Origin: Armatimonadota bacterium
Lineage (GTDB): Bacteria > Armatimonadota > HRBIN16
Reading direction: 5' to 3'
Assembly (NCBI GenBank): GCA_963677485.1
Contig: OY781964.1
Span: forward strand, 4,580,862 to 4,644,861
DNA: 64,000 nucleotides
A program made the position numbers and the translations under genes. How positions within the stretch are numbered: the first letter of the stretch is position 1; each line of letters opens with the position of its first letter. Below, one piece after another: positions 11,111 to 57,907 of the stretch. The notes beneath the pieces are model-generated. The model searched no databases. It saw nothing but the letters and a program-made list of their open reading frames with translations, and was not told where the DNA came from.

Positions 11111-11202
11111 TATACACCCGGTTTTGTTGGGATTTGATCATTTGTATCATAATGCATATTGTGACACAATGCAAATGGATTATGTGTGGTCGTAAGTGGA
11201 GG

Positions 11203-26817: not shown

Positions 26818-26879
26818 CAGACACAGCCTATAACTTATATGCCCAGTTGAGTTTCAAATCATCGCATGGAGACGGCATC

Positions 26880-29177
26880 ATGAAGGCCATCGCAATCTTG
26901 CTCATCTTAGCGTTGTTTGGCAGCGTTGTATGCATGGCTGCAGCACCACCAGTAGCCAGTTATACCCCGGCTGTTCATGTCGGAATCGATGTAGTCGATA
27001 GTGCTGATGGACGGTATATCCGAGGCGTATACGAAGGCCAAGACTCGTTGTCGCTAACAGACGGTGTCACGCCCCTGAGTTCATTTATATACTTCAAACT
27101 GACGGATGATGTCCGGCGAATGGTTGGCAGCCACTGTTTTGTAGTGGTCGACTTTTTCAACGAAGGCATGATGAATGCCTATCTGGAATACAACTCCACG
27201 AGCATGCTTTATCACATGTCGCCCTCGTTTCTGCTGACAAACACTCAAAAATGGGATAGAGTTTTCATTGAGCTTAACAATGTGGCGTTTACCGGCCAGC
27301 AGAACAGCGGAGCCGATTTCCGTATCTCCAGCATGCCCAGAGGTCGTATCGCTCGTGTGGAACTCTATACGGACGATCCTGGGTTACCGAAGAGAAACAC
27401 TGCTGAACTTCTCAAGAACATGAAATCCAAATACGACGCCAGCTCACATGGCATGTTCTACACATTCGGTAATGACGCGGATGAAGGCGTGGCCACGTTG
27501 TATAAAGCACTCGGTGTGACAAGTGTCGAGAGTTACGTCACCTGGGAGACGGTAGAGAAGAAGCAAAAAGGGTCATGGGACTGGTCGCAATGGGATAAGC
27601 AAGTCGCTTCCCTCAAAGCGGCGAATATGAAGTGGGTTCCGTTCCTCATTCTGGGTCCGGCGTACTCAACCCCTGGCTGGTTCCGAGAGAGCCGGGAGCA
27701 CTATCCCAGCGTATGCCTGGAACACAACATCGCCAGTAAGGTGGAGTCGCTCTGGAACCCAAACCTTCCGGCGTATATCGATCGGTTCATCGCTGAGTTT
27801 GCCAAACGCTATAAAGACACTGGCGTGATTGAATCTGTGCTATTAGGTATTCAAGGCGATTTCGGCGAGGCGATATACCCGGTATCCGGTGGGGGATGGA
27901 CGTTCCTGATACCCGGTGAATACCACGACCATGCCGGTTTTTGGTGCAATGATCCATATGCGCTCAAAGATTTTCAAAAATATACCCAAAAGAAATACGG
28001 TAGTATCAAGAACCTTAATAGGACTTGGAAAACCTCATATCTATCGTTCGAAGAGGTGATGTTGCCTGCTCAGAACGAGCAGCAAATCAGTGGCCTGATG
28101 AGCGACGCCCAAGCCAACAAACCTGGCATTCGCCGGAGATGGCTGGACTTCGTGGAATGGTACCGAGCCTCAATGACCAACTGGTCAGAATGGTGGATCA
28201 AGACCACTCGCAAGTATTTCCCAACGACGCCCATATACCTGTGTACAGGCGGTGATGCACCACCTGAGCATGGGTCCCAGTTTGCCGAACAAAGTCGCGT
28301 GGCTGCGAAATATAAGGCTGGTGTCAGGATTACCAACGAAGGGTCTTATTATCCCGGCAACTTCTCGATCACCCGGTGGGTGGCCTCCGCATGTAAGCAG
28401 TATGGCACCTATTTCGGCTTTGAGCCTGCAGGTGAGGAAAATGAAACGGGGATAGTCGCCCGGATATACAACGCCACCACCTCCGGTGCTAACCAGTTGC
28501 ATGACTACGCCACGAATGTGACAGCCTCACAGACTCGGACGGCCGCGCAACAGCAGAATCTGCAATGGCTGTTCCATGTGCAGAAGCCCGTGGTACCGGT
28601 TGCTTTATGGTATCCCAATGTACACATGACCATTAGTCGAGGTGGATTCTTCGAGACAGCACAGAAGCTGCGTGACTACACAGATTACGACTATATTGAT
28701 GAGACCATCCTGCGGCATGGTGGCTTAAATGGTCACAAGATACTGGTCATGGCTCACGGCAGCATCATTGAGCAGACAGATGCCCAAATCATCGCCAAGT
28801 GGGCGGCTCAGGGTGGGCGGGTGATCATCAAAGATATCCCAACATTTGAGAGTGTCGAAGGTGATCATAAACCTGATTCGCTGTTGAAGGCCAAAGCACG
28901 CAGTGTGTCCGGCTGGGATCAGTTTGCCGATGCGCTCAGAGAAGCTATGGCAAAGTTATCGCTGCCGGTTGTTGACCTTGCCGCTGATGAGCTCTTTAGC
29001 ACCCAGATATCACCGGACAAGTTCTTGTTCTACAATATGGGCCTAAAGGATGTTGTTGCGAAGGCCATTGTGCATGGCAAGTCATACAGCCTGCTGGTGA
29101 AAGCGGGCAGCATCAACGAGCTGACATTGCCTGTTTCTGACGTCCACAATGTAAAGGGTAAAGGAGCGGCGAAGTGA
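26880..29177 (+). CDS. Secreted glycoside hydrolase-like protein, GH14 (beta-amylase)-like TIM barrel
   Basis: ATG 26880 with GGAGA SD and signal peptide MKAIAILLILALFGSVVCMAAA. The segment LGIQGDFGEAIYPVSGGGWTF...FWCNDPYALKDF parallels the beta-amylase catalytic segment [21 protein letters not shown]...FQCYDKYLKADF, which I recall from soybean beta-amylase. Confidence 0.5.
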   Translation: MKAIAILLILALFGSVVCMAAAPPVASYTPAVHVGIDVVDSADGRYIRGVYEGQDSLSLTDGVTPLSSFIYFKLTDDVRRMVGSHCFVVVDFFNEGMMNAYLEYNSTSMLYHMSPSFLLTNTQKWDRVFIELNNVAFTGQQNSGADFRISSMPRGRIARVELYTDDPGLPKRNTAELLKNMKSKYDASSHGMFYTFGNDADEGVATLYKALGVTSVESYVTWETVEKKQKGSWDWSQWDKQVASLKAANMKWVPFLILGPAYSTPGWFRESREHYPSVCLEHNIASKVESLWNPNLPAYIDRFIAEFAKRYKDTGVIESVLLGIQGDFGEAIYPVSGGGWTFLIPGEYHDHAGFWCNDPYALKDFQKYTQKKYGSIKNLNRTWKTSYLSFEEVMLPAQNEQQISGLMSDAQANKPGIRRRWLDFVEWYRASMTNWSEWWIKTTRKYFPTTPIYLCTGGDAPPEHGSQFAEQSRVAAKYKAGVRITNEGSYYPGNFSITRWVASACKQYGTYFGFEPAGEENETGIVARIYNATTSGANQLHDYATNVTASQTRTAAQQQNLQWLFHVQKPVVPVALWYPNVHMTISRGGFFETAQKLRDYTDYDYIDETILRHGGLNGHKILVMAHGSIIEQTDAQIIAKWAAQGGRVIIKDIPTFESVEGDHKPDSLLKAKARSVSGWDQFADALREAMAKLSLPVVDLAADELFSTQISPDKFLFYNMGLKDVVAKAIVHGKSYSLLVKAGSINELTLPVSDVHNVKGKGAAK

Positions 29178-29926: not shown

Positions 29927-31336
29927 CTACCTTAGACTGCTGGGCTGGGAGCTGACTGGCCAGTTGTCCGATCGAAAAGGCATCGCCGGGAATCCTGCTC
30001 CGTTGTAGAGGTTAATATCGGGAGAATCCGCCCATCCAAACCTGACGGCTACCGGCATCGACACATACACGCTGCTGGCCCACACGCGGTCGCCCACAAT
30101 AAAAGCATCAGCAGGGTACCATTTACGGTCCGACCCGGCGATGAAGAAATCACGGACCGTGCCTGATCTGCCTACAAGTCCACCCACGGTGTTCACAAAG
30201 CTCACCATCGCCTGGTTTCCCATCAGGGACAATTGGCTAAATTGAGGGCCTGTGTAATCTACAGGTAGTTTGTAGTGCTTGTTGATGGCGGTGAGTGCAA
30301 TACGCTGGGCAATCAACTTCTTGTATTGCGGTATCGAATCCGGCAGCTCTGACAGGTCGATGATGTTGACCAGTGTCGTCGATTTGGCGATCCGGGCGGC
30401 TGCCGATTGCGAATCCCGCATCTCTGCCCACAGGCTATTGTTGATAGATAGGGAAGTGGTCGTCTCTGTGTCAGAAGGCAGTTGCACCACCAAGAACGGC
30501 AGATCGTTGTTGCCCCAGTCTGCGCGCCAACCCTTGATTAAATCCGCCAGGTGAAATCGGTAGCGGAAAGCATCACCGATGTCGGCTTTGCCCTGATACC
30601 AAACAACACCTTTGACGGTGTATGGAACAAGAGCCGCAATCAGGCTGTTATACAACGCGTACTGGTCGAAGCGGCTCATTCTGCTCTTGGCGAAGACGCT
30701 GATACTGGCCTTTGTCTTGGGGCTCATCCATTGGGTAATCGCACTGCTATCTGCCGACACCACGATGATGCCAACCGGCACATTGAGCTGCTGTCGGAGC
30801 TGCCGACCGAAGAAATAGCCAATGGCACTGGTGTTTGCAGCAAACATGTTCTGTGCGGACATCCACGTTGGACTCGCATGTTTTAGTTGGCTAGGTTGAT
30901 CGGTAGATACTGTGAACAGATGCAGGCTGGAATCCGGCGCAGTGTTCACGAAGCTGGCATAATCGGACGTCTTCAATACCGGCACGCTCAGGTTCTCGTC
31001 GCCACATAGAAGCCACACTTCGCCTACATACACGTCGGTGATGTTGATCTCGTTGTTACCAGCTGCTGTCAGGGTATACGGTCCGCCTGCGGGCATCTGC
31101 TTCAGTTTAATGGACCATCGTCCATCAGTGCAGATGGTGTTGGCCTGCTGACCGTTAAGGCTCACAGCTATCTTTTCACCGCGAGATGCGGCTCCCCAGA
31201 TGGTCACCGGTGCATTACGTTGTATGACCATGCCATTAGAAAACTGCGGGCCTAATGACACATCGGCCATGATCTGTCCAGAACACAGTAACGCAATAAT
31301 CATGGTTAAGCAGGTTTGTTGGTATTTATTCATCAT
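29927..31336 (-). CDS. SASA (sialate O-acetylesterase)-family protein with degenerate catalytic motifs
   Basis: Signal peptide. Full-length homology to the neighbouring esterase, but GQSNM is replaced by GDENL, WGG by ADS, GESN by GKAD, and DIHP by DSIP. Confidence 0.7.
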   Translation of the reverse strand: MMNKYQQTCLTMIIALLCSGQIMADVSLGPQFSNGMVIQRNAPVTIWGAASRGEKIAVSLNGQQANTICTDGRWSIKLKQMPAGGPYTLTAAGNNEINITDVYVGEVWLLCGDENLSVPVLKTSDYASFVNTAPDSSLHLFTVSTDQPSQLKHASPTWMSAQNMFAANTSAIGYFFGRQLRQQLNVPVGIIVVSADSSAITQWMSPKTKASISVFAKSRMSRFDQYALYNSLIAALVPYTVKGVVWYQGKADIGDAFRYRFHLADLIKGWRADWGNNDLPFLVVQLPSDTETTTSLSINNSLWAEMRDSQSAAARIAKSTTLVNIIDLSELPDSIPQYKKLIAQRIALTAINKHYKLPVDYTGPQFSQLSLMGNQAMVSFVNTVGGLVGRSGTVRDFFIAGSDRKWYPADAFIVGDRVWASSVYVSMPVAVRFGWADSPDINLYNGAGFPAMPFRSDNWPVSSQPSSLR

Positions 31337-31449
31337 GTCTCTCCACCCTATATGACCGTTTACCGTTCAAGGTGTTACGTGCAAACGCGAGGAAGCCCCG
31401 CTGCAGTGTTGTCACTGCGACGGGGCTATAAGATATCTTGGGTGCTAGA

Positions 31450-32862
31450 TTATGGTTGTGTGACCAATTTCCAATCATCTGTACGGAAAGGAGATGCTGG
31501 CAAATCCTTGCCGTTATATAGATTGAGTATTGGATACATTCGCCAGCCGTATCGGACTGCGACAGGAGCAGATACAGCTGAGCTGGATACCACAACTGTG
31601 TTGCCTACGATAGTTGCATCCGCCCAGACAAACTTCTTGTCTGCTCCGGCGATGGTGAAGCCCGTTAGTTTTCCACCTTTGGCCACCAGACCGCCATCAG
31701 TATGATTGAACTTCAGTATGATTTGGCTGCCCTTGACGCTCAGACTTTTATAATCTGGGCCTGACCAGGCAACGTTCTTCATACCATAGGTTTTATTGAG
31801 GGCGATATAGGCCAGGCGCTCGCCGACGGGTTGTTTGTTTCTGGGATGGATGTCCACAGCATCGCCTACATCAGTGATGACTGCCATGCCTGAATTCTTT
31901 ACATTTTTGGCCACCATGAGCTGTGACTCACGAGTGTCAGACCAAGCGCATTCTGCTGGATCGGCCGGATCACCCGCTGATAGGAATGGTGCCAGTTGGA
32001 CGCTGAGGAAAGGGAAGTCTCCCTGTTTCCAGTTTTCGCGCCAGTCTTTAATCATGTTGGTATGTTCATACCGGTAGTTGTAGCCGTTGCCAGCATTCGA
32101 TTCACCTTGGTACCAAATGGCTCCGCGAATGCCATAGGGGATCACGGGAGCGATCATGCCGTTATATAGACATGAGGGCACGTGTGGCAGCTGACCAGCG
32201 ATTGATGGGTCGATTTTGATGAGGTTTTGCTCTTGGTCGATCATGCGCTTGCTGGTCCATGCTTCGACCAGTGTGCCGCCCCAGGAACTGTTGATCACGC
32301 CTACAGGCACTTTCAGCACTTGCCGTAAGTATCGGCCGAAGTAGTATCCCACTGCACTGAATGGACCAGCCGTGTGATAACTGCTGCGGGTCCACTGCGA
32401 TTTGACGTCTGTTATCGGTTGTTCCTTGGCCGTCAGCGGCACTTGAAACAGGCGAAGCTCGGTATCCGTAGATGCCTTCATGGCCTTCTCGGCATCAAGG
32501 CAGACCGATAAGCTTAACTGCATGTTGGATTGGCCGCTGCAGACCCATACTTCGCCTACAAGAATGTCTTTACACTCTACATAGTTGGTGCCAATCACCG
32601 ATAGCGTGTAGGGACCACCTGCTTTCATGGCAGGCAATCTGACCATCCAGGTTCCATCCTTGGATACGGTATTCACTCGAGCATTACCTAGCTTTACCGT
32701 GATTTTTTCACCGACCGCGGCAGTACCCCAGACGGGGATGAGCCGGTCGCGCTGCAATACGGCACCATCGGTAAACATTCCACTTAGCTGCACATCAGCC
32801 TGCACCTGGGTGAAAAGACCGAGGGATGCGATAGCTAGCGCGATTGGTAGTACAAGTTTCAT
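31450..32862 (-). CDS. Sialate O-acetylesterase-family (SASA, SGNH-type) carbohydrate acetylesterase
   Basis: Signal peptide. Intact motifs GEVWVCSGQSNM, SSWGGT, WYQGESN and DIHPRNK. Confidence 0.8.
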   Translation of the reverse strand: MKLVLPIALAIASLGLFTQVQADVQLSGMFTDGAVLQRDRLIPVWGTAAVGEKITVKLGNARVNTVSKDGTWMVRLPAMKAGGPYTLSVIGTNYVECKDILVGEVWVCSGQSNMQLSLSVCLDAEKAMKASTDTELRLFQVPLTAKEQPITDVKSQWTRSSYHTAGPFSAVGYYFGRYLRQVLKVPVGVINSSWGGTLVEAWTSKRMIDQEQNLIKIDPSIAGQLPHVPSCLYNGMIAPVIPYGIRGAIWYQGESNAGNGYNYRYEHTNMIKDWRENWKQGDFPFLSVQLAPFLSAGDPADPAECAWSDTRESQLMVAKNVKNSGMAVITDVGDAVDIHPRNKQPVGERLAYIALNKTYGMKNVAWSGPDYKSLSVKGSQIILKFNHTDGGLVAKGGKLTGFTIAGADKKFVWADATIVGNTVVVSSSAVSAPVAVRYGWRMYPILNLYNGKDLPASPFRTDDWKLVTQP

Positions 32863-32883
32863 TCGATCGTCCTTCTAGTTATG

Positions 32884-34242
32884 TTAGTTTATGTATGTAA
32901 CGGTTCCGTTAGCATCGACCTTATATCCCCACTTGGCAATATAGTAGTTGCCAGGCAGGAATGAGTCACCGATGCTTTTCAACTTCGCCGTTAGCTCTTG
33001 ATCCAGCTTCTGTTGTAGTTTGGCATGGGCTGGGATGTTGGCCAGGTTGTTCATTTGATAGGGATCCTGGTGGTTGTCATATAACAGCCACGGACCGTCC
33101 AGTGTGCGCACATAGGTATACCGGCGCGTTCGCAGCCCGCGGTATTCGCGGCCGCCATTACGCCGTTCCCATTCACCAAACGGTGAAATGCACTCAATCA
33201 GTACCGGGTTATCGTCTTTCGACAGTCTGCCGGATATAACTTCCGAAAAGTCGTCGCCTTCAACGCTGGCAGGGATAGGAAGACCGCATAAACCAAGCAG
33301 GGTGGGCATCAAGTCAGGCGTGCCAATCGGCATGTCGATCTTCTTGCCGGTCCGGCCCAGGCGTTGCGGCCATCGGAGAAGCAGGGGAACCATGATCGCC
33401 TCGTCCCATGGACGTTGTTTGCGGACTTGGTTCTGTGAGCCCAGCATTTCGCCGTGGTCTGATGTGAGCACAAAGATGGTGTTCTCAGCCAGGCCTGTTT
33501 CCTCTAGAGTCTTCCTCAGAGATCCCACAGCGGCATCCATCGCGGCGATGTGACTGTAGTAGCCTGCCAGGTCTTTACGCAGGTCCTGGGTCACATTGGG
33601 ACGCTGCTGCAGTGCGGCTGGGTCGAACATATCTTGAAAGCCTTTAGGAGCTGTTTCAAACGGGTTATGAGGCGGTCCCCAAGATAGGAACATACAGAAC
33701 GGTTTTGTATCTTTGGCATAGTCATGAAGCAGATCGCAGGCATCTTTGGTCTGTGCCGTCAGGTCATACCCATCCCAGATGCGCGCTTTACGGTCGTTAT
33801 CTGCATAGTAAGGGCTGTTGTTATAGTCATGGGTACATTCCAGCACTTTCCAGTAGTCAAAGCCCTGGCGTCGTTCCTTGGGGATATAGTTGCTGCGGCC
33901 GTGCCCATCGATATGCCATTTGCCGATATACGCGGTCTTGTAGCCGCCCTGCTTGAATACCTCAGCTATGGAAGTGGCCCGGTTGCTCAGGCACACATCA
34001 TTAACAAACAGCCCGTGAGTATGTGGATACTGACCAGTGAGCAATGAACCGCGGTAGGGGGTACACACGGGGCATGTGCTGACAGCGTTCGCGAAATTCA
34101 CGCTCTCGGAAGCGAGTGCATCAATATGGTCCGTCTTACCCTTTAAGTTCGGGTCGCCTGCATATCCCGCGGCTTGCGCGCGCCATTGGTCAGCGAAAAC
34201 AAACACGAGGTTGGGCCTATTCGATTTGGATGCTAAAGACAT
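32884..34242 (-). CDS. Cys-type sulfatase (arylsulfatase family)
   Basis: ATG 34242 with GGAG SD. NLVFVFADQ start. Formylglycine motif CTPYRGSLLTG (C-x-P-x-R). Later blocks GKWH and SDHGE. No signal peptide at this start. Confidence 0.85.
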   Translation of the reverse strand: MSLASKSNRPNLVFVFADQWRAQAAGYAGDPNLKGKTDHIDALASESVNFANAVSTCPVCTPYRGSLLTGQYPHTHGLFVNDVCLSNRATSIAEVFKQGGYKTAYIGKWHIDGHGRSNYIPKERRQGFDYWKVLECTHDYNNSPYYADNDRKARIWDGYDLTAQTKDACDLLHDYAKDTKPFCMFLSWGPPHNPFETAPKGFQDMFDPAALQQRPNVTQDLRKDLAGYYSHIAAMDAAVGSLRKTLEETGLAENTIFVLTSDHGEMLGSQNQVRKQRPWDEAIMVPLLLRWPQRLGRTGKKIDMPIGTPDLMPTLLGLCGLPIPASVEGDDFSEVISGRLSKDDNPVLIECISPFGEWERRNGGREYRGLRTRRYTYVRTLDGPWLLYDNHQDPYQMNNLANIPAHAKLQQKLDQELTAKLKSIGDSFLPGNYYIAKWGYKVDANGTVTYIN

Positions 34243-34300
34243 ATATTCATCTCCATAATGCTGAAGAGCTGTTGGTATTAGTATAGCCAATCTAGTTTCG

Positions 34301-35272
34301 TTAAGTTTGCTCTGAATCCCTGCCTTGCATATAGTCTGCAGCACGTAAATAGCTTGTTTCATATGATGCAGGGGCGTCAAGCGGAATTTCAAACAACCGT
34401 CCACCTCTTAAGTCGTGCTTGTGCGGTTCTGGCAAGCCATAGGTACCCCAACCGATGCTGCCGCCATATCCCATTTTGATGCCATACCAATCACCCGCGA
34501 ATGTGTTAGTGTGGTCGTGACCGACAAACATTCCCATGATGTTTCCTTGCTCCAGCATGGCTGTAGCAAGGCCAGAGTTCAGTGCGGGTGCACAGATGGG
34601 CTCATTCATGGCATCCACAAACAGCGATTGGGCGGCCACTTCGTGGTATTCGGGTAAGGGGATATGGAAATATGCCAAGCCAGGGATAACTTGCTTGAAG
34701 CACTCTTCGTGCCATTTCGATTGGTCGATGAACCACTCAACCTGCTGATGACTAATCCAGCCGTAGCCGGATATCTCTTTGGCTTTCATATCAACGGGCG
34801 GATAATCCAAAGAATCAAACAGCCAGATCGCAAGGTCAGGGTGTTCAGCGTGCCGAGAGATAAATAGAACATCGTTGCCGCATCCCGGTATGCTGCTTAG
34901 TATGTCACGGTTGATGTTGCCTGGTAGGGCTCGGTATTGCTCCAAGAGTTCGCGTTTGGTCATACCCAACTTGTCGATACGCTCTGCATCATGGTTACCC
35001 ATGGTCATGGCCCAGGGTACATTCGCTTTGATGCATGGCCCGGCGGCTTGCTTCACCGCTTCAATCAACTGTTTCTTGCTGGTGCAGTCTGGTGCACATG
35101 CGCAGTCGCCCGTGAGAACTACCATGTCTGGCTTGACACCGTCTATCATGGCGGACATCCCGATGGCTGTCTGCGGATGTATCGCCGCTCCATGGTGGAG
35201 GTCCGTGAACTGAAGAAGCCGGAATGCTCGGTCGTGATGAAACTGGTAAGTACGTTGCTCGGTGATGACCAT
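34301..35272 (-). CDS. Calcineurin-like metallophosphoesterase
   Basis: Motifs FTDLHHG, LTGDC, GNHD and GHDHTN. The ATG 35272 start is preferred because of AAGGGGA 6 nt upstream. The track ORF extends to GTG 35329. Confidence 0.75.
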   Translation of the reverse strand: MVITEQRTYQFHHDRAFRLLQFTDLHHGAAIHPQTAIGMSAMIDGVKPDMVVLTGDCACAPDCTSKKQLIEAVKQAAGPCIKANVPWAMTMGNHDAERIDKLGMTKRELLEQYRALPGNINRDILSSIPGCGNDVLFISRHAEHPDLAIWLFDSLDYPPVDMKAKEISGYGWISHQQVEWFIDQSKWHEECFKQVIPGLAYFHIPLPEYHEVAAQSLFVDAMNEPICAPALNSGLATAMLEQGNIMGMFVGHDHTNTFAGDWYGIKMGYGGSIGWGTYGLPEPHKHDLRGGRLFEIPLDAPASYETSYLRAADYMQGRDSEQT

Positions 35273-36102: not shown

Positions 36103-37596
36103 GTGAGGAATGAGTTATTATCTCAGACGATAGCTGTGAAGTATGCACAGTTCTGCAAGGCCAAGCAACGGACTATCAAAGGCCTAAACATATCTGTGAC
36201 TGCAGGTCCGATATACCATCCGGCCTATCTGGAGCGAGCAGCAAAGCGCACCAACACCTATCGTCTGGATGATTTACTGCGCGGCTGCCTGTATGCACCG
36301 GCGCATGTAGCCAACGGCTATCGGGTCATTTTGAAGGAGCACTACCGACAAATCAGGCCCAAACCGAACTATCAGCAGCTTTCAGCGATGGCATACGGGA
36401 TATTGTGGAGCGGTATCGCTTACGAACTGTGCCGATTTTCGGGCTATACACCTCCTTTACCGGTAGATTGGCGTGACTTTCAACGTGCAGATATGGATGA
36501 TGGCGTTTATGATATCGCCGTAATCCGTCCGTTTGATATCTGGACGTTGTGGGGCCATTTTAGAGAGTTCCGGTTGTTGAAAAATGATGCGTTCACGCAA
36601 GCGGAACAGCACGCTATTCGGCGATTTGCAGTCGTGCCACTGCTATCTCAAGTTAATTCTTTGTCCGTGCCTTATCTAGACGAGGTCATGAGTGGTTTGT
36701 CAGCAAACACTACCACCCACAGACCGCGAGTGCCATTGATGACATGCTCACTAACACAAACGAAACGACCTCATCACAAAGCCGCTAGAGGCATGGTACG
36801 GGCTCACAAAACTAAAGCACCAATACTGAATGCTGATCTCGTCAATACGGTGACTGAAAAGTATGCGCAGTTCCAAAAAGCCAAGAACAAGACGCTTAAG
36901 CAAATGGGTGTTCATGTGCCACCTGGACAGATACTGCATCCGGCATACCTTAAGCGTGAAGCGGAGCGGACGGACTACTATCAGTTGAACGCGATGTTGA
37001 GAGGCTGCATGTTGGCACCGCTTGATGTTGCCAGCGGGTACTGGGAAATACTGGACCTGTATTACAGCAAGATCAAACCAGAGCCTACCTGCAAGCAACT
37101 AATGGCGATGTTTTATGGAGTGATGTGGAGCGGTTTTGCTGCCGAGTTGCTGGAATACTCAGGGATCCACCCATCAATGCCTTTCAGATGGCAAGACTAC
37201 CAACGTCAAGACATAAGTTTTAACGAGTTTGATGCAAACTACGAGATAGAGCCGTGGTCGCTGTTCATTGACATCCAACGGATCATCATGTGCCGGATTG
37301 ATACACTCACGCCGATGCAGCAAAGGCTCTACCAGAGGGTGTTGCTGGATTTGGTTTTATTTCAAGTGGTAGAGCTGGACATACCGATTCTTGCTCAATA
37401 TGTTTCTGTGCTACTGGAACACATGGATTTGTTCGATAATCTGATCACGTCCATAGATATCGAGCACATGCCTGCGAAGTGGTATAAATCAGAACTACAT
37501 CTATCGGTAGTGGAGCAGACGAGAGCCATCCTGGCCAAATATGAGCAGTATGCCCAAGCCGAAGAGCATTCGGGGGCTGGCCCAGCCCCTGTATAA
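36103..37596 (+). CDS. Hypothetical 497-aa cytoplasmic protein made of two tandem copies of an unknown ~215-aa domain
   Basis: GTG start. Residues ~5-215 and ~245-455 align colinearly, for example KYAQFCKAKQRTIKGL...YHPAYLERAAKRTNTYRLDDLLRGC versus KYAQFQKAKNKTLKQM...LHPAYLKREAERTDYYQLNAMLRGC. A basic linker joins the copies. No TM helix or signal peptide. Confidence 0.6.
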   Translation: MRNELLSQTIAVKYAQFCKAKQRTIKGLNISVTAGPIYHPAYLERAAKRTNTYRLDDLLRGCLYAPAHVANGYRVILKEHYRQIRPKPNYQQLSAMAYGILWSGIAYELCRFSGYTPPLPVDWRDFQRADMDDGVYDIAVIRPFDIWTLWGHFREFRLLKNDAFTQAEQHAIRRFAVVPLLSQVNSLSVPYLDEVMSGLSANTTTHRPRVPLMTCSLTQTKRPHHKAARGMVRAHKTKAPILNADLVNTVTEKYAQFQKAKNKTLKQMGVHVPPGQILHPAYLKREAERTDYYQLNAMLRGCMLAPLDVASGYWEILDLYYSKIKPEPTCKQLMAMFYGVMWSGFAAELLEYSGIHPSMPFRWQDYQRQDISFNEFDANYEIEPWSLFIDIQRIIMCRIDTLTPMQQRLYQRVLLDLVLFQVVELDIPILAQYVSVLLEHMDLFDNLITSIDIEHMPAKWYKSELHLSVVEQTRAILAKYEQYAQAEEHSGAGPAPV

Positions 37597-37604
37597 ACCG
37601 AACG

Positions 37605-38945
37605 CTACCTCGGCTTCACGAAGCCGACGCTCTTGAGCTTCAGCCAGCGGCCAGGGACATCCTTCGGTTCGGGCATGATGGCCAGACGGGTGATCAAGCC
37701 CTTATACTCCGCATTCGCGCCGAGGTGGACTTCATACACGTGATACTTACCGTCGTCGATCACGGGGATGCTGACGGTGGTCTGGGCACTAAAGGGTTGA
37801 CCATCTCTGCGCTGCCACATCACACTCGCGCTTTTCTGCCCGGGTGAGAACGCGGCTTTGATGTAAAGCACAGGGTTCTTCGCGGCTACCCAACACCACA
37901 ACTGACCGTTTATGGTTGCACTCGCTTTGCTGATGTCGATGTTCAGCTCACCCTTGATGGGCCAGCCGGCATCTGTGGCGTTTCGATAGGCCCAATAGTG
38001 GCGGTCGTTCTTGAACACCCAGTTGGGATGTTCGGCAGGCTTGCGTTGTTTATAGATATAGCCACGTATCTCGTCCACGGTGCCCAGTATGAGGGTGTAC
38101 TGGAAGCTCGTGTCGATATTCCAGTCGATCACCTGATCCTGCTGCGGAGCGATATAGCCGGTCGGGCCATCTTTTGGGCCGCCTGAGCCAGGCACTCCGG
38201 CAAATCCCGCGGAGAAGTTATAACATGTAGGCTCATACATCCCAAGACCCCAGCCATCTTTATCTACCAGGGCCGCCCAGTTCTCAGTAGCGTGCCAGTG
38301 TTTCGGCCACCAGATCACGGGGTTCTCGGTCACCTTGTCGCCAGTGAATGGCTTGTCGCCGTCGTAGGTAAACACACGGTACCAGGGGCCGTTGGTGTAG
38401 ATGGCGGGCAGCTCCTGGAAGCGGGCTTCATACTGCTTCTTGTCCGGGCGGTTGTTCAGCATCCGGCTTTTAATCTGCGCGGTGTTTCCTTTGAGTGTGA
38501 TCCAGCACTCGTAGATACACTCACCGGGCACATTGTCCAAAGGCCAGGGCATGGGGATGCACTTCACATACAGGCTGTTGCCAGATTTCTTGTGATCCAG
38601 CACCTTGGAGCCATGGCCGAAGCAGTCGCCAGCTTGGATTGGGTTCCAGCCAATGGTGACCCATGCTTCCTGCGCCTTCTTGCCGTTAGGTTCAAACGGC
38701 ACAGGACCAGCATAATGCGACATTTGAATTTGGCGTCCAAAGTCGAAGCTGTTGACCATGTTAAGCTCGGATCCAGATTTAGATAGGTAGGTGATCGCCC
38801 CGCCAAGGTCCAGGTTGATGCCCAGTTTGATCTTGCCGTTGTCGATGTAGCTCATGTTTTCTGCCATGACTGCACCCCCTGTGATATTAAGTATACAAAG
38901 TATAGCAGCCGCTATTAGGAAACGCTTATGCCAGGTGTCTGTCAT
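37605..38945 (-). CDS. Paralog 1 of an unknown exported protein family (Sec-type signal peptide)
   Basis: ATGA overlap with the paralog 2 stop. Signal peptide MTDTWHKRFLIAAAILCILNITGGAVMA|EN. Shares all family blocks (GRQIQMSHY, GWNPIQAGD, VPGEC..ECW, QELPAIYTNGPW, GGPKDGPTGYIAP). Confidence 0.7.
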   Translation of the reverse strand: MTDTWHKRFLIAAAILCILNITGGAVMAENMSYIDNGKIKLGINLDLGGAITYLSKSGSELNMVNSFDFGRQIQMSHYAGPVPFEPNGKKAQEAWVTIGWNPIQAGDCFGHGSKVLDHKKSGNSLYVKCIPMPWPLDNVPGECIYECWITLKGNTAQIKSRMLNNRPDKKQYEARFQELPAIYTNGPWYRVFTYDGDKPFTGDKVTENPVIWWPKHWHATENWAALVDKDGWGLGMYEPTCYNFSAGFAGVPGSGGPKDGPTGYIAPQQDQVIDWNIDTSFQYTLILGTVDEIRGYIYKQRKPAEHPNWVFKNDRHYWAYRNATDAGWPIKGELNIDISKASATINGQLWCWVAAKNPVLYIKAAFSPGQKSASVMWQRRDGQPFSAQTTVSIPVIDDGKYHVYEVHLGANAEYKGLITRLAIMPEPKDVPGRWLKLKSVGFVKPR

Positions 38946-40204
38946 TTTACAGCCAGCTTCTTGAACCCGACGCTCTTGAGCTTCAGCCAGCGTCCTGCAA
39001 CACCTTTGGGATCGGGTACCAGCGCCAGTCTGGTGATCAGACCTTTATACTCGGCATTGGCTGCTAGCTTCACAGCATACACGTGATAGTTACCATCTGC
39101 GATGACAGGGAAGCTGACGCTGGTCTGTGGGCTGAACGCTTGACCATCTTTACGCTGCCATGTCACGTTGGCTGTTTTCTGACCGGAGGAGAACGCAGCT
39201 TTGATGTAGAGCACCGGGTTCCTGGCGGCTTCCCAGAGCCAGATTGGACTGTATATGATGCCATTGTCCTTGCTGATGTCGATGTTCAACTCATCCTTGA
39301 TAGGCCAGCCTGTGTCGACGGCATTCTGGTATGTCCAGTAGTGCCTATCGTTTTTGAACACCCAGTTGGGGTGCTCAGAAGGACGTGGCTGTTTGTAGAC
39401 ATGGTCGCGGATCTCTTTCAACGAACCAAGTATAAGCACATAGTTGAAACTGGTGTCGATGTTGTGGTCAAGTATCTCATCCGCCTGCGGTGAGAGGTAG
39501 CCGGTGGGGTCATCTTTGGGACCGCCTTTGTAAGTCGTACCAACGAAACAACCGGCAATCGTATATATACCGGGCTCGTATATCCCGAGTCCCCAGTCAT
39601 TGTCATCGACAATTGCCGCCCAGTTTTCAGAGGACAGTCCGATTGTGGGAGGGAAGGTGGACGGATACTGAGTGAGTTTATCTTTACTGTATGGCTTGTC
39701 GCCTGTGTATGTAAAGACACGGTACCATGGGCCGTTAGTGTAAACAGCGGGTAATTCCTGACCACGGCCTTCATACTGGATCTTATCCGACCGATGGTTG
39801 ACGATGCGGCTTTTGACCTTTACCGTGATGCCTTCCAAGCTGATCCAACACTCATAGCTGCATTCGCCCGGTACACCGTTAAGTGCCCATTGCATAGGGA
39901 TGCATTTCACATACAAGCTGTTTCTAGATTTTCGGTGCGCAACCACCTTAGAACCATGGCCGTTACAATCGCCTGACTGGATGGGGTTCCAACCGGCTGT
40001 AATCCAATGAGGATTGGCTTTTTGGCCGTCTGCTTCAAACGGCACAGGCCCGCCATAGAACGACAGTTGAATCTGACGCCCCCAATCGTGGCTGTTGATC
40101 ACATTCAGATCGGAGCCGGACTTAGATAGGTAGGTGATGGCACCACCGATGTCCAGGTTGATACCCAACTTGATCTGGCCGTTGTCGATGTAACTCATGT
40201 TCAT
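38942..40204 (-). CDS. Paralog 2 of the unknown family, no signal peptide
   Basis: The ATG 40204 start (MNMSYIDNGQIKLG...) coincides with the mature N-terminus of paralog 1. The track extension to TTG 40273 runs through a terminator hairpin and is not hydrophobic. Confidence 0.65.
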   Translation of the reverse strand: MNMSYIDNGQIKLGINLDIGGAITYLSKSGSDLNVINSHDWGRQIQLSFYGGPVPFEADGQKANPHWITAGWNPIQSGDCNGHGSKVVAHRKSRNSLYVKCIPMQWALNGVPGECSYECWISLEGITVKVKSRIVNHRSDKIQYEGRGQELPAVYTNGPWYRVFTYTGDKPYSKDKLTQYPSTFPPTIGLSSENWAAIVDDNDWGLGIYEPGIYTIAGCFVGTTYKGGPKDDPTGYLSPQADEILDHNIDTSFNYVLILGSLKEIRDHVYKQPRPSEHPNWVFKNDRHYWTYQNAVDTGWPIKDELNIDISKDNGIIYSPIWLWEAARNPVLYIKAAFSSGQKTANVTWQRKDGQAFSPQTSVSFPVIADGNYHVYAVKLAANAEYKGLITRLALVPDPKGVAGRWLKLKSVGFKKLAVK

Positions 40205-40240
40205 TGATGGTACAGACGCCACTTTGATACCCCCAAGTTG

Positions 40241-40266
40241 AAAAGAAGGGGAGCGAAACGCTCCCC
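40241..40266 (-). terminator. Intrinsic terminator between paralogs 3 and 2
   Basis: The minus strand reads GGGGAGCG-TTT-CGCTCCCC followed by TTCTTTT, starting 10 nt after the paralog 3 stop. Confidence 0.55.
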
Positions 40267-40276
40267 ATCGCAATCG

Positions 40277-41650
40277 CTATTCGCCAGATGGTCTCTTGAA
40301 TCCAATGGATTTGATCTGAACCCTCTGCCCATCGGCACCAACAGGGCTGATGATGCGCAGGCGCGAAATGACGCCGCTCCAGTTGGGCTTGCCCTTCAGC
40401 TCGATGGCATACACTCGGTATTCGCCGTCGCCAGTCACGGGGAAGGTGGTGGTATACATCTCGCACGGGTCAGCCTGCCCCATATCGATGATTTCACTCC
40501 ACCGCTGCTTCTCCCAAACCAGTGTCATTTGCTTTTGCTCTGTCTTGAAGGCCGCCTTTATGTAAAGCACGGGGTTCTTGTCCGCCTGGATGAATATCTT
40601 CGGTCCATTAATACTCGCGTCACTTTTGCTGAGATCGACGTCGAGTTCGCCTTTGATAGGCCAGCCAGTGTCAATGGCGTTGCCATAGGTCCAGTAATAC
40701 CGGTCTTTGTCGAAGACCCATTGCGGCTGGGTTGCCGGGCGGGGCTGTTTGTAGACATAGTCACGGATTTCCTTCACCGTGCCCAGAATCAAAACATATT
40801 GGTAGGCGGTGTCGATGTTATGGTCAAGGATTTGGTCCATCTCTGGCGCAATATATCCTGTAGGACCGTCTTTTGGCCCGCCCTTGCCTGGCTTCCCTGC
40901 AAAACCGCCTGCGATGGTGTAGACGCCGGGCTCGTAGATACCCAGCCCCCAGCCCTCATTGTTGACCAGTGCTGACCAGTTCTCCGTCGGAGTGACGATC
41001 TTCCACAGAAACGCGGCGGGGGTCTGTGTGAGTTCGCCACCTGTATACGGCTTATCACCGATGTATGTCATCAGCCGCCACCATGGGCCGTTGGTATAGA
41101 CAGCAGGCAGTTCCTGGCCCCTGGCGGGGTAGAAGTTCGTGTCCGGCCGGTTATTAACCATACGGCTTTTGACTTGCACCGTGTTGTCCTTAAGAGTGAT
41201 CCAGCACTCGAAAGTGCATTCACCCGGCACATTGGTCAACGGCCAGTGCATGGGGATGCATTTCACATAGATGCTCTTGCCGTCGTTCTTGTATGCCAGC
41301 ACTTTTGACTTGTTCCCAGCCACATCACCGGACTGGATGGGGTTCCAGCCGATGCCTGTCCAGGTTGGGTCGGCCTTCTTACCATCTGGCTCGAATGGCA
41401 CTGGGTAGGAGTAGTGCGACATCTGTATTTGGCGCCCGAGGTCGGCACTGTTGACCAGGTTCAGGCTGGAGCCGGCTTTTGAGATATAAGTGATCGATCC
41501 ACCCATATCCAGGTCGATGCCCAGCTTGATTTTGCTATTCTGAATGAAGCTCATATCCGGCTTAGTATTACTCACGCTGCTGCACCCCACTAATAGAACC
41601 ATAATAGTCGAAGCGGTCAAGCTCCGAAGAATCGATGGTACGAAAACCAC
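40277..41650 (-). CDS. Paralog 3 of the unknown family (lipoprotein signal)
   Basis: GTG start with AAGGAG SD 7 nt upstream. Lipobox ...MVLLVGC|SS. Same conserved blocks as the other paralogs. Confidence 0.7.
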   Translation of the reverse strand: MVFVPSILRSLTASTIMVLLVGCSSVSNTKPDMSFIQNSKIKLGIDLDMGGSITYISKAGSSLNLVNSADLGRQIQMSHYSYPVPFEPDGKKADPTWTGIGWNPIQSGDVAGNKSKVLAYKNDGKSIYVKCIPMHWPLTNVPGECTFECWITLKDNTVQVKSRMVNNRPDTNFYPARGQELPAVYTNGPWWRLMTYIGDKPYTGGELTQTPAAFLWKIVTPTENWSALVNNEGWGLGIYEPGVYTIAGGFAGKPGKGGPKDGPTGYIAPEMDQILDHNIDTAYQYVLILGTVKEIRDYVYKQPRPATQPQWVFDKDRYYWTYGNAIDTGWPIKGELDVDLSKSDASINGPKIFIQADKNPVLYIKAAFKTEQKQMTLVWEKQRWSEIIDMGQADPCEMYTTTFPVTGDGEYRVYAIELKGKPNWSGVISRLRIISPVGADGQRVQIKSIGFKRPSGE

Positions 41651-41668
41651 AGTCAGACTCCTTGTAAG

Positions 41669-43021
41669 TTATTTACCAGTTGGTTTGGCGTAGCCAATAG
41701 ACTTGATGATGGCTCTGTTACCTGCGACGCCTTTTCGAGATGGCACCAGTTGCAGCCGTGTGATCATGCCGCTATACTCTGGTGACTTCGAGAGATCAAT
41801 GGAATAGATGCGCGATACTCCATCGCCTGTGATAGACATCGGCAGACTTTTGGTGTCGTTGAAACCCGGCGCGTCTTTGCGTTCCCATTGGATGGTCGCT
41901 GAGGTTTCATCTGTGGTAAAGGCGGCTTTGACATATAGAATTGGGTTCTTTACCGCGCTCCACAACCCTTCAGGGCTGATCAACTGTGGGTTGTCGTTAC
42001 TAAGGTCGATATTCAGCTCGCCCTTGATTGGCCAGCCTTTGTCAATGGCGTTACGATAAATCCAATGCTGCCTGTTGTTTTTAAAAACCCAATTGGGCGT
42101 GACATCCGGCTGTTTTTGCTTATACACATAGTCGCGGATCTCCTGTAGTGAGCCAAGAATCAACACATAGGAGTATGAGTAGTCGATATTGTGGTCAATG
42201 ATCTCTCGATGCAAAGGGGCGATGTAGCCGGTGGGACCATCTTTAGGCCCGCCTTTGCCTGGTTTCCCAGCAAATCCACCGATGGTGCGGTATACACCTG
42301 GCTGCCAGATGCCAAGGCCCCAGTCATTATCGTTCACCAAAGCAGACCAGTTTTCGGTGCTGATCCAGCCCTTCCATGGCATGACTGGTGGGATATGAGT
42401 GAGCTTGTCATTGGTGAATGGCTTATCGCCATCATAGGTCATCAGCTTCCACCATGGGCCATTGGTGTAAATGGCGGGCAGCTCCTGGTCGCGGCCGTCA
42501 TACTGATTTGTATCTATTCGGTGGTTCACCATACGGCTCTTCACCAGCACGGTGTTGTCTTTTAGCGTAATCCAGCACTCAAAGGTGCATTCACCGGGCA
42601 CGTTGTCTAGCGGCCACTGCATAGGTATGCACTTCACATACAGACTCGTTTTGTCGTTCTTGTGGGCAAGCACTGTAGAGCGGTGCTGATAACAGTCCCC
42701 AGACTGGATGGGATTCCAGCCAAGGCCTCTCCAGGCATCGTTTGCTTTGTGCCCATCTGGCTCAAATGGATTGGGGCCAGAATAGTGCGACATCTGTATC
42801 TGCCGACCCCAGTCGGCTGAGTTCACCAGGTTTACATTGGTGCCGGATTTCGATATGTAGGTGATAGAGCCTCCCAGATCGAGGTTTATGCCGACCTTGA
42901 TTTTCCCATTATCGATGAAACTGATGTTATCTGGCTTCTGTTGTGCGGTGCCTTTGCAACCGCATATCCCAACTGTCAAAAGGCCGATTAGCATCATGGT
43001 AGCTACAGGCTGGATGGTCAA
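41669..43021 (-). CDS. Paralog 4 of the unknown family (probable lipoprotein signal)
   Basis: TTG start with AAGGAG SD 7 nt upstream. Hydrophobic N-terminus ending GICGC|KG. Same conserved blocks as the other paralogs. Confidence 0.7.
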   Translation of the reverse strand: MTIQPVATMMLIGLLTVGICGCKGTAQQKPDNISFIDNGKIKVGINLDLGGSITYISKSGTNVNLVNSADWGRQIQMSHYSGPNPFEPDGHKANDAWRGLGWNPIQSGDCYQHRSTVLAHKNDKTSLYVKCIPMQWPLDNVPGECTFECWITLKDNTVLVKSRMVNHRIDTNQYDGRDQELPAIYTNGPWWKLMTYDGDKPFTNDKLTHIPPVMPWKGWISTENWSALVNDNDWGLGIWQPGVYRTIGGFAGKPGKGGPKDGPTGYIAPLHREIIDHNIDYSYSYVLILGSLQEIRDYVYKQKQPDVTPNWVFKNNRQHWIYRNAIDKGWPIKGELNIDLSNDNPQLISPEGLWSAVKNPILYVKAAFTTDETSATIQWERKDAPGFNDTKSLPMSITGDGVSRIYSIDLSKSPEYSGMITRLQLVPSRKGVAGNRAIIKSIGYAKPTGK

Positions 43022-48364: not shown

Positions 48365-49570
48365 GTGGCAACTAAGAGTTTCATAGAACAGAGTTTTGAA
48401 CAGGGCAAGGGCGTGCTGCGTCTGTCACCCGTGTTCGTACCTCGGCGTTTCGGCGCACCAGGGTATCGACTACGTCTTCACCCCGATGACTATTTCGCAC
48501 TCGGCACAGAGCGGGGTGCCATGAAAGAGCGTTGGCTGGCAGCCGTCATCCCCGCCATGAACGGCCCTCTGGCTCCACCTGATGAAGGCATGAGTTATGT
48601 CGCACCTACCGATAACCCGAAAGACAAGTTCACTTTAAAAGATGCTGTGGATGCGCTTGGCAAGGACATCATCGGCGAGGAACTGATGCGGGATTACGGC
48701 GGCTGGCCGATGTATTCCAAGTTCTTCGATTATGGCACCCCGCTGTTTCATCACCTGCACCTTGGGTTTGAAGAGGCGGGTCGGGTTGGCCGATTGGGCA
48801 AACCGGAGGCGTATTATTTCCCGGCTCAGCTCAACAACCACATGGGCACTTTCCCGCACACTTATTTTGGGTTTGACCCTGATGTGACCATCGACGAAGT
48901 GCGCGAAAGACTGCTTGACTACGAAAAGCGAGACACGCGCATCACGGAACTCTCGCGCGCTTACCGCATCGCACGCGGTACCGGCTGGTATGTTCCCCCG
49001 GGTGTGCTTCACTCCCCAGGGTCGGTTCTGACCTATGAGCCTCAGTGGGGCAGTGACGTGAACTCTGTCTACGAGAACATCACCGCTGGTGAGGTCTACC
49101 CATACGAATTCCTGGTAGAAAACTGCCCTGAGGAGAAGAAACGCGACGTCGACTACGTGCTTTCTTTGATGGACTGGGAGAAGAACATTGATCCACACTT
49201 CAAGAAGACCTATTACCGCCCACCTGTGGTCTGCCACAGTGATGCCGGTTATGAAGAGAAGTGGATTGCGTATGCCAACCCATACATCGCGGCCAAGGAG
49301 TTGACGGTGCATCCCGGCCAGACGGTCACCGTGAAAGACGGAGCCGCCTACGGATGCATTTTGCTGCAAGGACATTGCAAGGTCGGTGTGCATGATGCGG
49401 AAGCCGCTATCATGCTGCGATACGGCCAGCTATCGGATGATGAGTTCTTTGTAGGCGAACCGGCCGCCAAAGAGGGTGTGGTGATCAGTAACCGCTCGAA
49501 ATCCGAGCCGCTGGTAATGTTGAAGCACTTTGGGCCAAACCATCCCGATATGCCTCGCCAGAAGAAGTAG
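48365..49570 (+). CDS. Cupin-fold protein resembling type I phosphomannose isomerase (putative sugar isomerase)
   Basis: GTG start with ggaggag SD. Colinear resemblance to E. coli ManA landmarks: ERWLAA (ELWMGAHP), PLFHHLHL (LSIQVHP), GKPEAYYF (HKPELVFA), VPPGVLHSPG (AETPHAY). This is pattern-level only. Confidence 0.4.
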   Translation: MATKSFIEQSFEQGKGVLRLSPVFVPRRFGAPGYRLRLHPDDYFALGTERGAMKERWLAAVIPAMNGPLAPPDEGMSYVAPTDNPKDKFTLKDAVDALGKDIIGEELMRDYGGWPMYSKFFDYGTPLFHHLHLGFEEAGRVGRLGKPEAYYFPAQLNNHMGTFPHTYFGFDPDVTIDEVRERLLDYEKRDTRITELSRAYRIARGTGWYVPPGVLHSPGSVLTYEPQWGSDVNSVYENITAGEVYPYEFLVENCPEEKKRDVDYVLSLMDWEKNIDPHFKKTYYRPPVVCHSDAGYEEKWIAYANPYIAAKELTVHPGQTVTVKDGAAYGCILLQGHCKVGVHDAEAAIMLRYGQLSDDEFFVGEPAAKEGVVISNRSKSEPLVMLKHFGPNHPDMPRQKK

Positions 49571-56541: not shown

Positions 56542-57756
56542 CTATTTCATCTTCTTCAGTTCGTTGTAGAGCTTGTCAATCTCGGCAGAGGTGATGGTGC
56601 GGCGCATCACACGGATTTTGTCGTAGCGATAGTTGTATTCGGGCGATGCACCATCGGCAGCTCCACCGATCTGGGTGGCGTAATAGAGGTAGATGGTGTA
56701 GTTCTTGCCCACTTTTTCCACATATGCTTCGGGTACGTGGACGGCGGGTGCTTCTGGTTCAGAGTTGATATGCCCCAGCACTTTCCACTTCAGACCATCG
56801 ATGGAGACCGCCTCGGTGAACTTGCGGCCACGCCAGGGGTCTTGGATACCTTCCACACTTGGATCACCATAAGCAAAAAGCAGTTTGCCTACGCGTACCA
56901 TATCAGGGTTCGGGAACCATATCAGTGCCGGATTCTCGTCGGCCGCGATGAGCTTCCATTGTTTTGGGTCGGTGAACTCACCTTTGCATTCAGCATAGCC
57001 CATCGAGATGCCTTTCGTGTAGAAATAGTCGAACCAAAGCCGGAACTTGCCGTTTTCAAACATGATTGACGGGCGTGCATACATCCCCATCAGGCAGGCT
57101 TCGCCCAGCGGATCAACGCCTAGAGCGCCATATTCCTTCGCGTAGGTCATCAGAGGTGCATCCATCTGCTTCCAATTCACGCCGTCCGCGCTGACCGCAC
57201 CCGCCACACAGCAGTAAGCACCATCAATGTCCTTGTCGGCATCAGCCGGATTGCTGAACTTGTAATAACCGTCTTTGTCGTATCCGGTCGAGGTGTAGAC
57301 CATGTAGTATTTGCCTTTTGCGAAAACCACGCTGGGATCACCGTTATGCCAGCTATCCCAGAAGAGGTTTCGAGCATAGACACATGGTCGCCACAATGAG
57401 GCCGTCATGCTGCCATCCCACACATTGTCGTGGCTCCATATCTCCCATGGGCCATCTGGCGTTTTCGCGCGCGCAGCGAAGATGGCGTCGCCGCCAGTGT
57501 AACCAGGGATGCTGCGGTTGAGATCGGCTGTCGCCCAGCCGAAGAACCAGCCGCGATATGGGTAGGATTTGTCTTTGACCTTGATCACATGCAGGTTGTA
57601 CATGTTGTTGAAGTTGGTGATCAGTGTCTTGCCGTTGCGCTGCCACTGCGCAGTGATATCGCGGTTGAAGTCTTCGGGGTGGGGCATTTGGGCTATTGAC
57701 ACACAGCAGAGTGCTAACATCAATGCAGTCGCTACGAAGGTGGTTTTGGTGCGCAT
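56542..57756 (-). CDS. Secreted beta-propeller glycoside hydrolase-like protein (GH43/GH117-like fold)
   Basis: Signal peptide. Blocks such as WHNGDPSVVFAKGKYYMVYTS and AYGDPSV resemble the DP.v...g.YYm blades of 5-bladed propeller GHs. Family not resolved. Confidence 0.4.
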   Translation of the reverse strand: MRTKTTFVATALMLALCCVSIAQMPHPEDFNRDITAQWQRNGKTLITNFNNMYNLHVIKVKDKSYPYRGWFFGWATADLNRSIPGYTGGDAIFAARAKTPDGPWEIWSHDNVWDGSMTASLWRPCVYARNLFWDSWHNGDPSVVFAKGKYYMVYTSTGYDKDGYYKFSNPADADKDIDGAYCCVAGAVSADGVNWKQMDAPLMTYAKEYGALGVDPLGEACLMGMYARPSIMFENGKFRLWFDYFYTKGISMGYAECKGEFTDPKQWKLIAADENPALIWFPNPDMVRVGKLLFAYGDPSVEGIQDPWRGRKFTEAVSIDGLKWKVLGHINSEPEAPAVHVPEAYVEKVGKNYTIYLYYATQIGGAADGASPEYNYRYDKIRVMRRTITSAEIDKLYNELKKMK

Positions 57757-57907
57757 AGGTTTCTCCAGTGGATGGTTGTTACTCAGATTGTATAACTATT
57801 CGGAAAGAACTTCTACAAAGGAATATCGAAAACCGCTGTGGCATGAGCATTCCAGCCAAAAAGACAGTATCATCACGGTAATGAACATTTCATTTCGAGG
57901 TGAATCC

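Follow-up and report, generated by a model that had tools for sequence, protein, structure and literature searches.

The stretch analysed here, hereafter the window, comprises 64,000 nt of contig OY781964.1 from an Armatimonadota bacterium (assembly GCA_963677485.1, positions 4,580,862 to 4,644,861 of the forward strand). At 37605-43021, four consecutive minus-strand open reading frames (ORFs) encode paralogous proteins, which we refer to as P4, P3, P2 and P1 starting from the first gene of the array. The original prediction, made from the letters of the window, had recognised four homologous genes in tandem, and the alignment bears this out with a similarity far above chance. Pairwise identities range from 55 to 66% (P1/P2 65%, P2/P3 55% and P3/P4 58% for neighbours), and the four proteins can be aligned end to end, with 56-66% identity to P1, a mean column identity of 72% and ~190 invariant columns. 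All the motif blocks quoted as shared were found in the four paralogs, with the small exception of P3, which carries NS instead of NG in the first block.

The first gene, P4 (41669-43021, 450 aa), starts at a TTG codon downstream of the Shine-Dalgarno sequence AAGGAG and encodes a lipoprotein-like N-terminus (…LLTVGICGCKG). P3 (40277-41650, 457 aa) starts at a GTG, also downstream of AAGGAG, and carries a lipobox-like LVGC in its N-terminus (…LLVGCSS…). The ORF of P2 extends over 38942-40273 (443 aa) from a TTG at 40273. This start is probably spurious, because a terminator-like hairpin located between P3 and P2 (40248-40266, minus strand; GGGGAGCG-TTT-CGCTCCCC, followed by the T-rich TTCTTTT) falls inside the 5' extension. 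The probable gene covers 38942-40222 and its true start is probably either the GTG at 40222 (VASVPSMNMSY…, ~426 aa) or the ATG at 40204 (420 aa), the latter being used in the public gene call (P0023, 420 aa). No signal peptide is encoded from either of these candidate starts. The P2 stop and the P1 start overlap (ATGA). P1 (37605-38945, 446 aa) probably carries a Sec-type leader, typical in form as judged by its sequence (MTDTWHKRFLIAAAILCILNITGGAVMA); we consider it probable rather than certain because the public gene call (P0032, 420 aa) begins 26 codons downstream and excludes it. Leaders differ across the array, P3 and P4 being lipoprotein-like and P1 probably Sec-dependent, while P2 has none.

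As the original prediction had stated, the proteins could not be placed by sequence. A Pfam-A scan of all four paralogs gave no match at E<=1, the sole match of an NCBIfam scan was spurious (16.8 bits compared to a cutoff of 218.65 bits), and a profile search of all PDB sequences returned 0 matches at E<=10. No description of the P1-P4 family was found in the literature. Relatives are numerous. A word-indexed search retrieved 1,738 of them, and the 240 homologs listed are all without a Pfam domain in this region and, wherever a name is given, are called 'hypothetical protein'. An exhaustive profile search of 1.84 billion representatives gave 3,672 clusters at E<=1e-3 and 764 at E<=1e-30. On contigs taken from one genome per species, at least 570 genome stretches from about 8 phyla encode a relative. 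Carriers include Armatimonadota, Planctomycetota (Phycisphaerae, Pirellulales, Thermoguttaceae), Verrucomicrobiota, Hydrogenedentota, Sumerlaeota and Victivallales, and a second search seeded with a member carrying a type IX secretion system (T9SS) tail added members from Bacteroidetes, Chloroherpetonaceae and Krumholzibacteriales-like bacteria. The best match outside the window is 91% identical and annotated 'Armatimonadota bacterium'. Between phyla, identity remains at 45-60%, and in a 62-sequence family alignment 60 columns are invariant and 82 nearly so, with charged or aromatic residues in many of them. As judged from Pfam, NCBIfam, PDB and the literature, this is a large and real protein family without a curated name. 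Anaerohalosphaeraceae bacterium U12dextr (JBOGCL010000024.1) is among the few cultured carriers.

The structure of P4 was modelled with AlphaFold2 from the 62-sequence alignment, with confident scores (pLDDT 89.3, pTM 0.88). The model consists of an all-beta N-terminal domain of ~260 aa (residues 33-291, encoded at 42149-42925, minus strand, and delimited by the model, Foldseek and the alignment), a helix (292-301) and a C-terminal beta-sandwich of ~135 aa (residues 310-443, encoded at 41693-42094, minus strand, delimited by the model and the alignment). By model and Foldseek comparison, the N-terminal domain has the fold of a galactose-mutarotase-like beta-supersandwich. Against the PDB, 88 matches were obtained at E<=1e-3. 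Galactose-mutarotase-like supersandwich domains make up most of the top 50 that were listed, and GH36 (glycoside hydrolase, GH) N-domains and BT SGBP-B were matched as well. Probability was 1.0 for GH38 C-terminal domains, galactose mutarotases, GH36 N-domains, YidC P1 and OpgD/MdoD; for the supersandwich match of the N-domain, E was 1e-8 to 1e-10, while identity within the alignments is 6-13%. The claim that this domain belongs to no recognisable family therefore holds by sequence; by structure it does not, since the fold-level match is confident. A confident structural match to a characterised family, which was expected to remove the novelty, was obtained at the superfamily level only. On the basis of the model, P1-P4 are a new sequence family within a known fold; the fold-level assignment is confident and nothing closer was matched.

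The N-domain holds most of the invariant residues, in P4 D70, R73, Q74, Q76, Y80, W102, N103, Q106, D109 and E148, together with R168, Q179, E180, Y185, E223, W225, D261, Y266 and D276; those of the C-domain are F313, R317, D327, G329, W330 and P331. Canonical mutarotases such as GalM work with a catalytic His/Glu pair, plus a second His and an Asp in the sugar pocket. No histidine occurs among the 60 invariant or the 82 nearly invariant columns of the 62-sequence alignment, and the His/Glu chemistry of canonical mutarotases is therefore not kept.

These observations bear on a first alternative, in which P1-P4 would be divergent enzymes of the aldose-1-epimerase type, mutarotases or isomerases with released mono- or oligosaccharides as periplasmic or cytoplasmic substrates. 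Stand-alone mutarotases and putative epimerases (3mwx, 3dcd, 4bze, 2htb, 3nre) are indeed the best single-domain structural matches, with E of 3e-8 to 5e-7, sugar importers of the ATP-binding cassette (ABC) type are encoded nearby and one copy of the array has no leader. However, besides the missing histidine, the Aldose_epim profile gave no match at E<=1, and hhalign of the 62-sequence profile against E. coli GalM and YeaD gave a probability of 0.1%; membership in the aldose-1-epimerase family was rejected on these grounds. The conserved C-terminal domain is absent from mutarotases, and the T9SS tails, dockerins, PEP-CTERM signals and carbohydrate-binding fusions found among family members (see below) suggest extracellular polymers as targets. 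We regard this alternative as very improbable.

The age of the array could be assessed by comparison with a sister Armatimonadota genome (OW818647.1, 5.3 Mb), in which the syntenic site (L001 7203-15490) holds six copies (A to F), flanked as in the window by the GNAT gene on one side and the 497-aa ORF on the other. P4 is the ortholog of copy A (90% amino acid identity), P3 of copy B (90%) and P1 of copy E (91%), in each case with identity uniform along the gene. The body of P2 is closest to copy D (77% identity, 99% bootstrap), while its leader and first ~150 nt are closer to copy C (77%, compared to 61% to D). Copy C also has no signal peptide, and a hairpin-like sequence similar to that at 40248-40266 is found upstream of it. 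This mosaic, a C-like leader and terminator region followed by a D-like body (sites at 40204-40273 in the window and L001 ~9950-10030 in the sister), could be explained by an old unequal crossover between C and D in which one repeat unit was lost. No window gene corresponds to sister copy C or F. For sister copies D and E, the public annotation starts at an internal ATG; these starts are probably mis-called, because upstream in-frame extensions encode signal-peptide-like leaders (MKSSSISGIYITALAILVSMAGGSA…, MGIWQRHLLQAASVLCLLNITGSEV…).

In a 129-sequence neighbour-joining tree, the array copies of both genomes form one clade (100% bootstrap) with deep internal branches, so that the expansion is lineage-specific. 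Synonymous divergence (dS) between paralogs is above 1.5 or saturated/undefined. Between orthologs, dS is 0.8-1.0 and dN/dS 0.05-0.07 for P4/A, P3/B and P1/E; for P2/D, dS is saturated (~4) and dN/dS is 0.036. With ortholog dN/dS of 0.036-0.067, all four window copies look maintained by selection. Amplification by tandem duplication, as originally proposed, is thus confirmed, whereas its presumed recency is contradicted by the saturated paralog dS, the ~90% identical orthologs in the sister array and the single clade with deep branches. The argument for recent duplication or gene conversion had been a 24-nt run shared by the 3' ends of P1 and P2. This run is present exactly twice in the window (37626-37649, within P1, where it encodes RWLKLKSV, and 38969-38992, within P2, both given on the plus strand; 0 expected) and is part of a 26-nt identical run. 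However, identical runs of 20-26 nt are frequent between paralog pairs, also across genomes, and the 24-mer occurs with 1 mismatch in sister copies E and F. It is therefore ordinary as a mark of recency, and recent duplication or gene conversion was rejected. P1-P4 are old, individually constrained paralogs that arose by a lineage-specific tandem expansion, with four copies here and six in the sister genome. Sites specific to a paralog type, that is conserved within orthologs, cluster at residues 209-220 and in the C-terminal sandwich; at residues 390-419, 8 of 20 comparable sites differ between paralog types, while the invariant core is untouched.

The family is modular. We checked ~79 longer members, 72 by Pfam scan and the rest from precomputed annotations. 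Carbohydrate-binding modules (CBMs) are fused to the module in several forms: CBM96, F5/8-C (CBM32, at least 3), CBM_4_9 and CBM_6. One published account defines CBM96 as an alginate-specific module of a lyase (PMC9971899). Secretion and anchor tags include Por_Secre_tail (6), FlgD_ig tails (many), PATR, PEP-CTERM and dockerin (2), and other additions are Ig-like and cadherin-like repeats and Laminin_G_3 (3). A distant member, P0135, carries an N-terminal SASA acetylesterase, the sole such fusion among the ~79. No known GH or polysaccharide lyase (PL) catalytic domain was found in these long members; as an accessory on GH, PL or carbohydrate esterase domains, the module was thus seen in the single SASA fusion and in no GH or PL protein. 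Among single-domain members, 89 of 103 have a hydrophobic or lipobox N-terminus, as judged by a crude heuristic. The P1-P4 module would therefore behave like a secreted catalytic unit, because CBMs and anchors attach to it whereas it is never itself attached to GH or PL domains. It is this modularity that chiefly favours an enzyme over a binding function.

A further alternative is a binding role. P1-P4 could be non-catalytic glycan-binding surface proteins, similar to lectins or to surface glycan-binding proteins (SGBPs), in which both sandwiches capture polysaccharide for other enzymes and the paralogs bind different epitopes. The leaders of P3 and P4 would fit surface lipoproteins, the protein is all-beta with nearest structural neighbours that include the non-catalytic GH38-C, GH36-N, YidC P1 and BT SGBP-B, neither a recognised catalytic motif nor a Pfam match was found, and the differences between paralogs are concentrated in the C-terminal sandwich. 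Binding proteins usually evolve fast. In contrast, this family keeps 45-60% identity across phyla and its 60 invariant columns are rich in Asp, Glu, Arg, Tyr and Gln. The addition of CBMs and anchors to the module, the lack of any GH or PL partner in the ~79 long members and the conservation of a leaderless copy also argue against binding as the function. We consider a purely binding role rather unlikely.

The gene neighbourhood provides a second line of evidence. Its original description was accurate: two SASA acetylesterases, a sulfatase, GH42/GH14-like proteins and two sugar ABC importers are encoded in the window. The SASA-type (PF03629) acetylesterases form a tandem pair (29927-31336 and 31450-32862, minus strand; 38% identical over 454 aa) followed by an S1 sulfatase (32884-34404, minus strand). 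This stretch (29927-34404) also flanks the six-copy array of the sister genome, and its context suggests a functional link to the array. Also nearby are a metallophosphoesterase, a GNAT protein, a metallo-beta-lactamase (MBL)-fold protein and the two sugar ABC systems.

Outside the array lineage, the gene was found as a single copy in 71 other loci. The idea that the family as a whole tends to be amplified in tandem was accordingly rejected, since arrays occur only in this Armatimonadota lineage. ORFs of these other loci were called by a greedy longest-ORF heuristic, which missed the family gene in 12 of them. The genes directly flanking the family gene are spread across 134 Pfam families. Sulfatase is the commonest of these next to the gene, with 8 among 110 immediately adjacent ORFs. 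Using distant positions within the same loci as a control, sulfatases made up 8 of 125 adjacent ORFs compared to 9 of 355 ORFs at least three genes away (odds ratio 2.6, Fisher p=0.053; p=0.03 within two genes). Families seen in pairs among the adjacent ORFs were 3-keto-disaccharide hydrolase, PL4 domain III, GH38N, GHL6 and GFO/IDH/MocA, and also DnaA, PFK and ETF. Some contexts are glycan-related (beta-helix proteins with PQQ propellers and GH2; GH51 with 3-keto-disaccharide hydrolase), one is an exopolysaccharide (EPS) glycosyltransferase cluster, and those of Bacteroidota, Krumholzibacteriota-like and other members were uninformative. Neither a conserved operon nor a polysaccharide utilisation locus was found among the other loci, and phmmer searches with both SASA esterases of the window gave no homolog in them. 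The proposed co-localisation with glycan genes thus holds for the window and the sister genome, whereas elsewhere it is weak, as judged by the sulfatase counts and the absence of SASA homologs. We grade the carbohydrate link provided by gene context as weak to moderate.

Another alternative is that of secreted proteins unrelated to carbohydrate turnover, such as adhesins, envelope components or enzymes acting on another polymer, whose fold likeness would be that of a generic beta-sandwich. Contexts are often non-glycan (a polyhydroxyalkanoate (PHA)/glyoxylate locus, sigma factors, FG-GAP/BNR T9SS cargo, housekeeping genes), TM-scores are only ~0.5 with 8-13% identity, and many fusions contain adhesin-like Ig, cadherin and PATR repeats. 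However, the module has been joined to four different CBM families and to a carbohydrate esterase, Foldseek gave a probability of 1.0 to dozens of supersandwich domains of carbohydrate enzymes, sulfatases are in excess nearby and many glycan-processing genes are present at the window locus itself. We judge such a non-carbohydrate role improbable.

Other genes of the window also lack a clear assignment. A 776-aa protein (26847-29177, plus strand) and a 987-aa protein (57569-60532, plus strand) gave only weak TIM-barrel matches of GH42/GH14 type (E 1e-8 to 7e-11), and are possibly further poorly described glycosidases. The 497-aa ORF next to the array (36103-37596, plus strand) has no Pfam match and consists of two tandem repeats of ~245 aa (41% identical, E 3e-50). 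It converges on P1, with 8 nt between the two genes, and occupies the same position beside the six-copy array of the sister (L001 15499-16992). Three further ORFs of ~380-400 aa are without Pfam match (48365-49570, plus strand; 56542-57756, minus strand; 11134-12282, plus strand), the first of which is conserved beside an ABC transporter in the sister genome. At 16008-19373 (minus strand), a secreted Met-zincin of 1,121 aa with a DUF4953/DUF5117/DUF5118 architecture is encoded; it is unrelated to the array.

Taken together, these results are compatible with a glycan-processing enzyme, a reading to which we give an even chance. The galactose-mutarotase-like fold is built to hold carbohydrates. 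An undescribed carbohydrate-active family, as originally proposed, is plausible from this fold, from the fusions with CBM96, CBM32, CBM4_9, CBM6 and SASA and from the secretion tags, whereas its function is a matter of inference. The supersandwich would be the catalytic module, a hydrolase or a lyase, in which invariant Asp, Glu, Arg, Tyr and Gln may form the putative active site while invariant Trp and Tyr would stack on sugars. The paralogs would share this core and vary in loop 209-220, in the C-terminal sandwich and in targeting, and they probably target different linkages, or work in different compartments, as one complex glycan is broken down. This glycan may be sulfated or acetylated, a suggestion made because a sulfatase and acetylesterases adjoin the array.

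Several points weigh against an enzymatic function in glycan processing. Many supersandwich domains are non-catalytic, including GH38-C, GH36-N and YidC P1. P2 has no leader, nor has sister copy C (from its annotated start, no upstream extension being found), and a leaderless copy is odd for an extracellular enzyme. The sulfatase excess is marginal and was obtained with crude ORF calls in sulfatase-rich phyla. Finally, the neighbourhoods are heterogeneous, with many housekeeping or unrelated genes and without a conserved operon. The more specific proposal is made with reserve: P1-P4 might tentatively represent a new CAZy-type family of glycoside hydrolases or polysaccharide lyases, with a histidine-free galactose-mutarotase-like supersandwich as the catalytic domain. 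This family, widespread in Armatimonadota, Planctomycetota, Verrucomicrobiota, Hydrogenedentota and bacteria of the FCB group, would be active on a common environmental glycan, possibly sulfated or acetylated, and the array of four to six copies would be a specificity series.

Among the major degraders of recalcitrant glycans are Armatimonadota, Planctomycetota and Verrucomicrobiota, whose secreted proteome is in large part unannotated. With thousands of strongly conserved members missing from Pfam, NCBIfam and PDB, an activity assigned to this family would annotate thousands of genes. If the catalytic reading is true, it would provide a second example, after GH186, of a mutarotase-like sandwich serving as a glycan-cleaving domain. 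The arrays of four and six copies constitute a ready natural set of variants for mapping specificity, with an invariant core compared to a variable loop and C-domain. Uncharacterised secreted families with carbohydrate-type (beta-sandwich) folds are common. The array is a solid and testable lead with a wide phylogenetic reach rather than a surprise, and does not overturn expectations.

Among known systems, the galactose mutarotases (3mwx, 3dcd, 4bze, 3k25, 2htb and 3nre) share the fold of the N-domain, with TM-scores of 0.46-0.58 by target length. They differ from it in sequence, with 8-13% identity to P4 (e.g. B. subtilis GalM 3mwx/4bze and YeaD-like 2htb), and the P1-P4 family has in addition a conserved C-terminal domain and is exported, lipidated or modular.

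The GH186 enzymes OpgD and OpgG, the beta-1,2-glucanases of E. coli, are likewise exported and composed of two all-beta domains, a large supersandwich and a smaller C-terminal sandwich. Foldseek aligned both domains with the OpgD/MdoD structures 8ip1 and 9e08 over 446-486 columns (E 6e-6 to 2e-5). The superposition of OpgD on P4 is poor (TM 0.28, rmsd ~17 Å), the domain geometry differs, and the N-domain of the P1-P4 family (~260 aa) is shorter than that of OpgD/OpgG. Membership in GH186/MdoG was rejected, since the MdoG profile gave no match at E<=1 and hhalign of the family profile against E. coli OpgD and OpgG gave a probability of 0.3%. In GH186, a stand-alone supersandwich proved to be a glycanase, EcOpgD being a beta-1,2-glucanase with D388 as the catalytic general acid (PMC10514313). 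GH186 may therefore offer the best analogy for the mode of action of P1-P4. Among GH enzymes, the best structural neighbour of both OpgD and P4 is the non-catalytic C-terminal part of GH38, as reported for OpgD (PMC10514313).

For P4, these C-terminal regions of GH38 mannosidases (7ufu/7ufr) gave the top Foldseek E (1.7e-10), aligned over ~450 columns and both domains, and YidC P1 reached a TM-score of ~0.55 to the P4 model. GH38-C, GH36-N and YidC P1 are non-catalytic and belong, as accessory domains, to larger enzymes or to a membrane insertase. Unlike them, the P1-P4 module occurs as an independent unit, is highly conserved and receives CBMs and anchors as its own additions.

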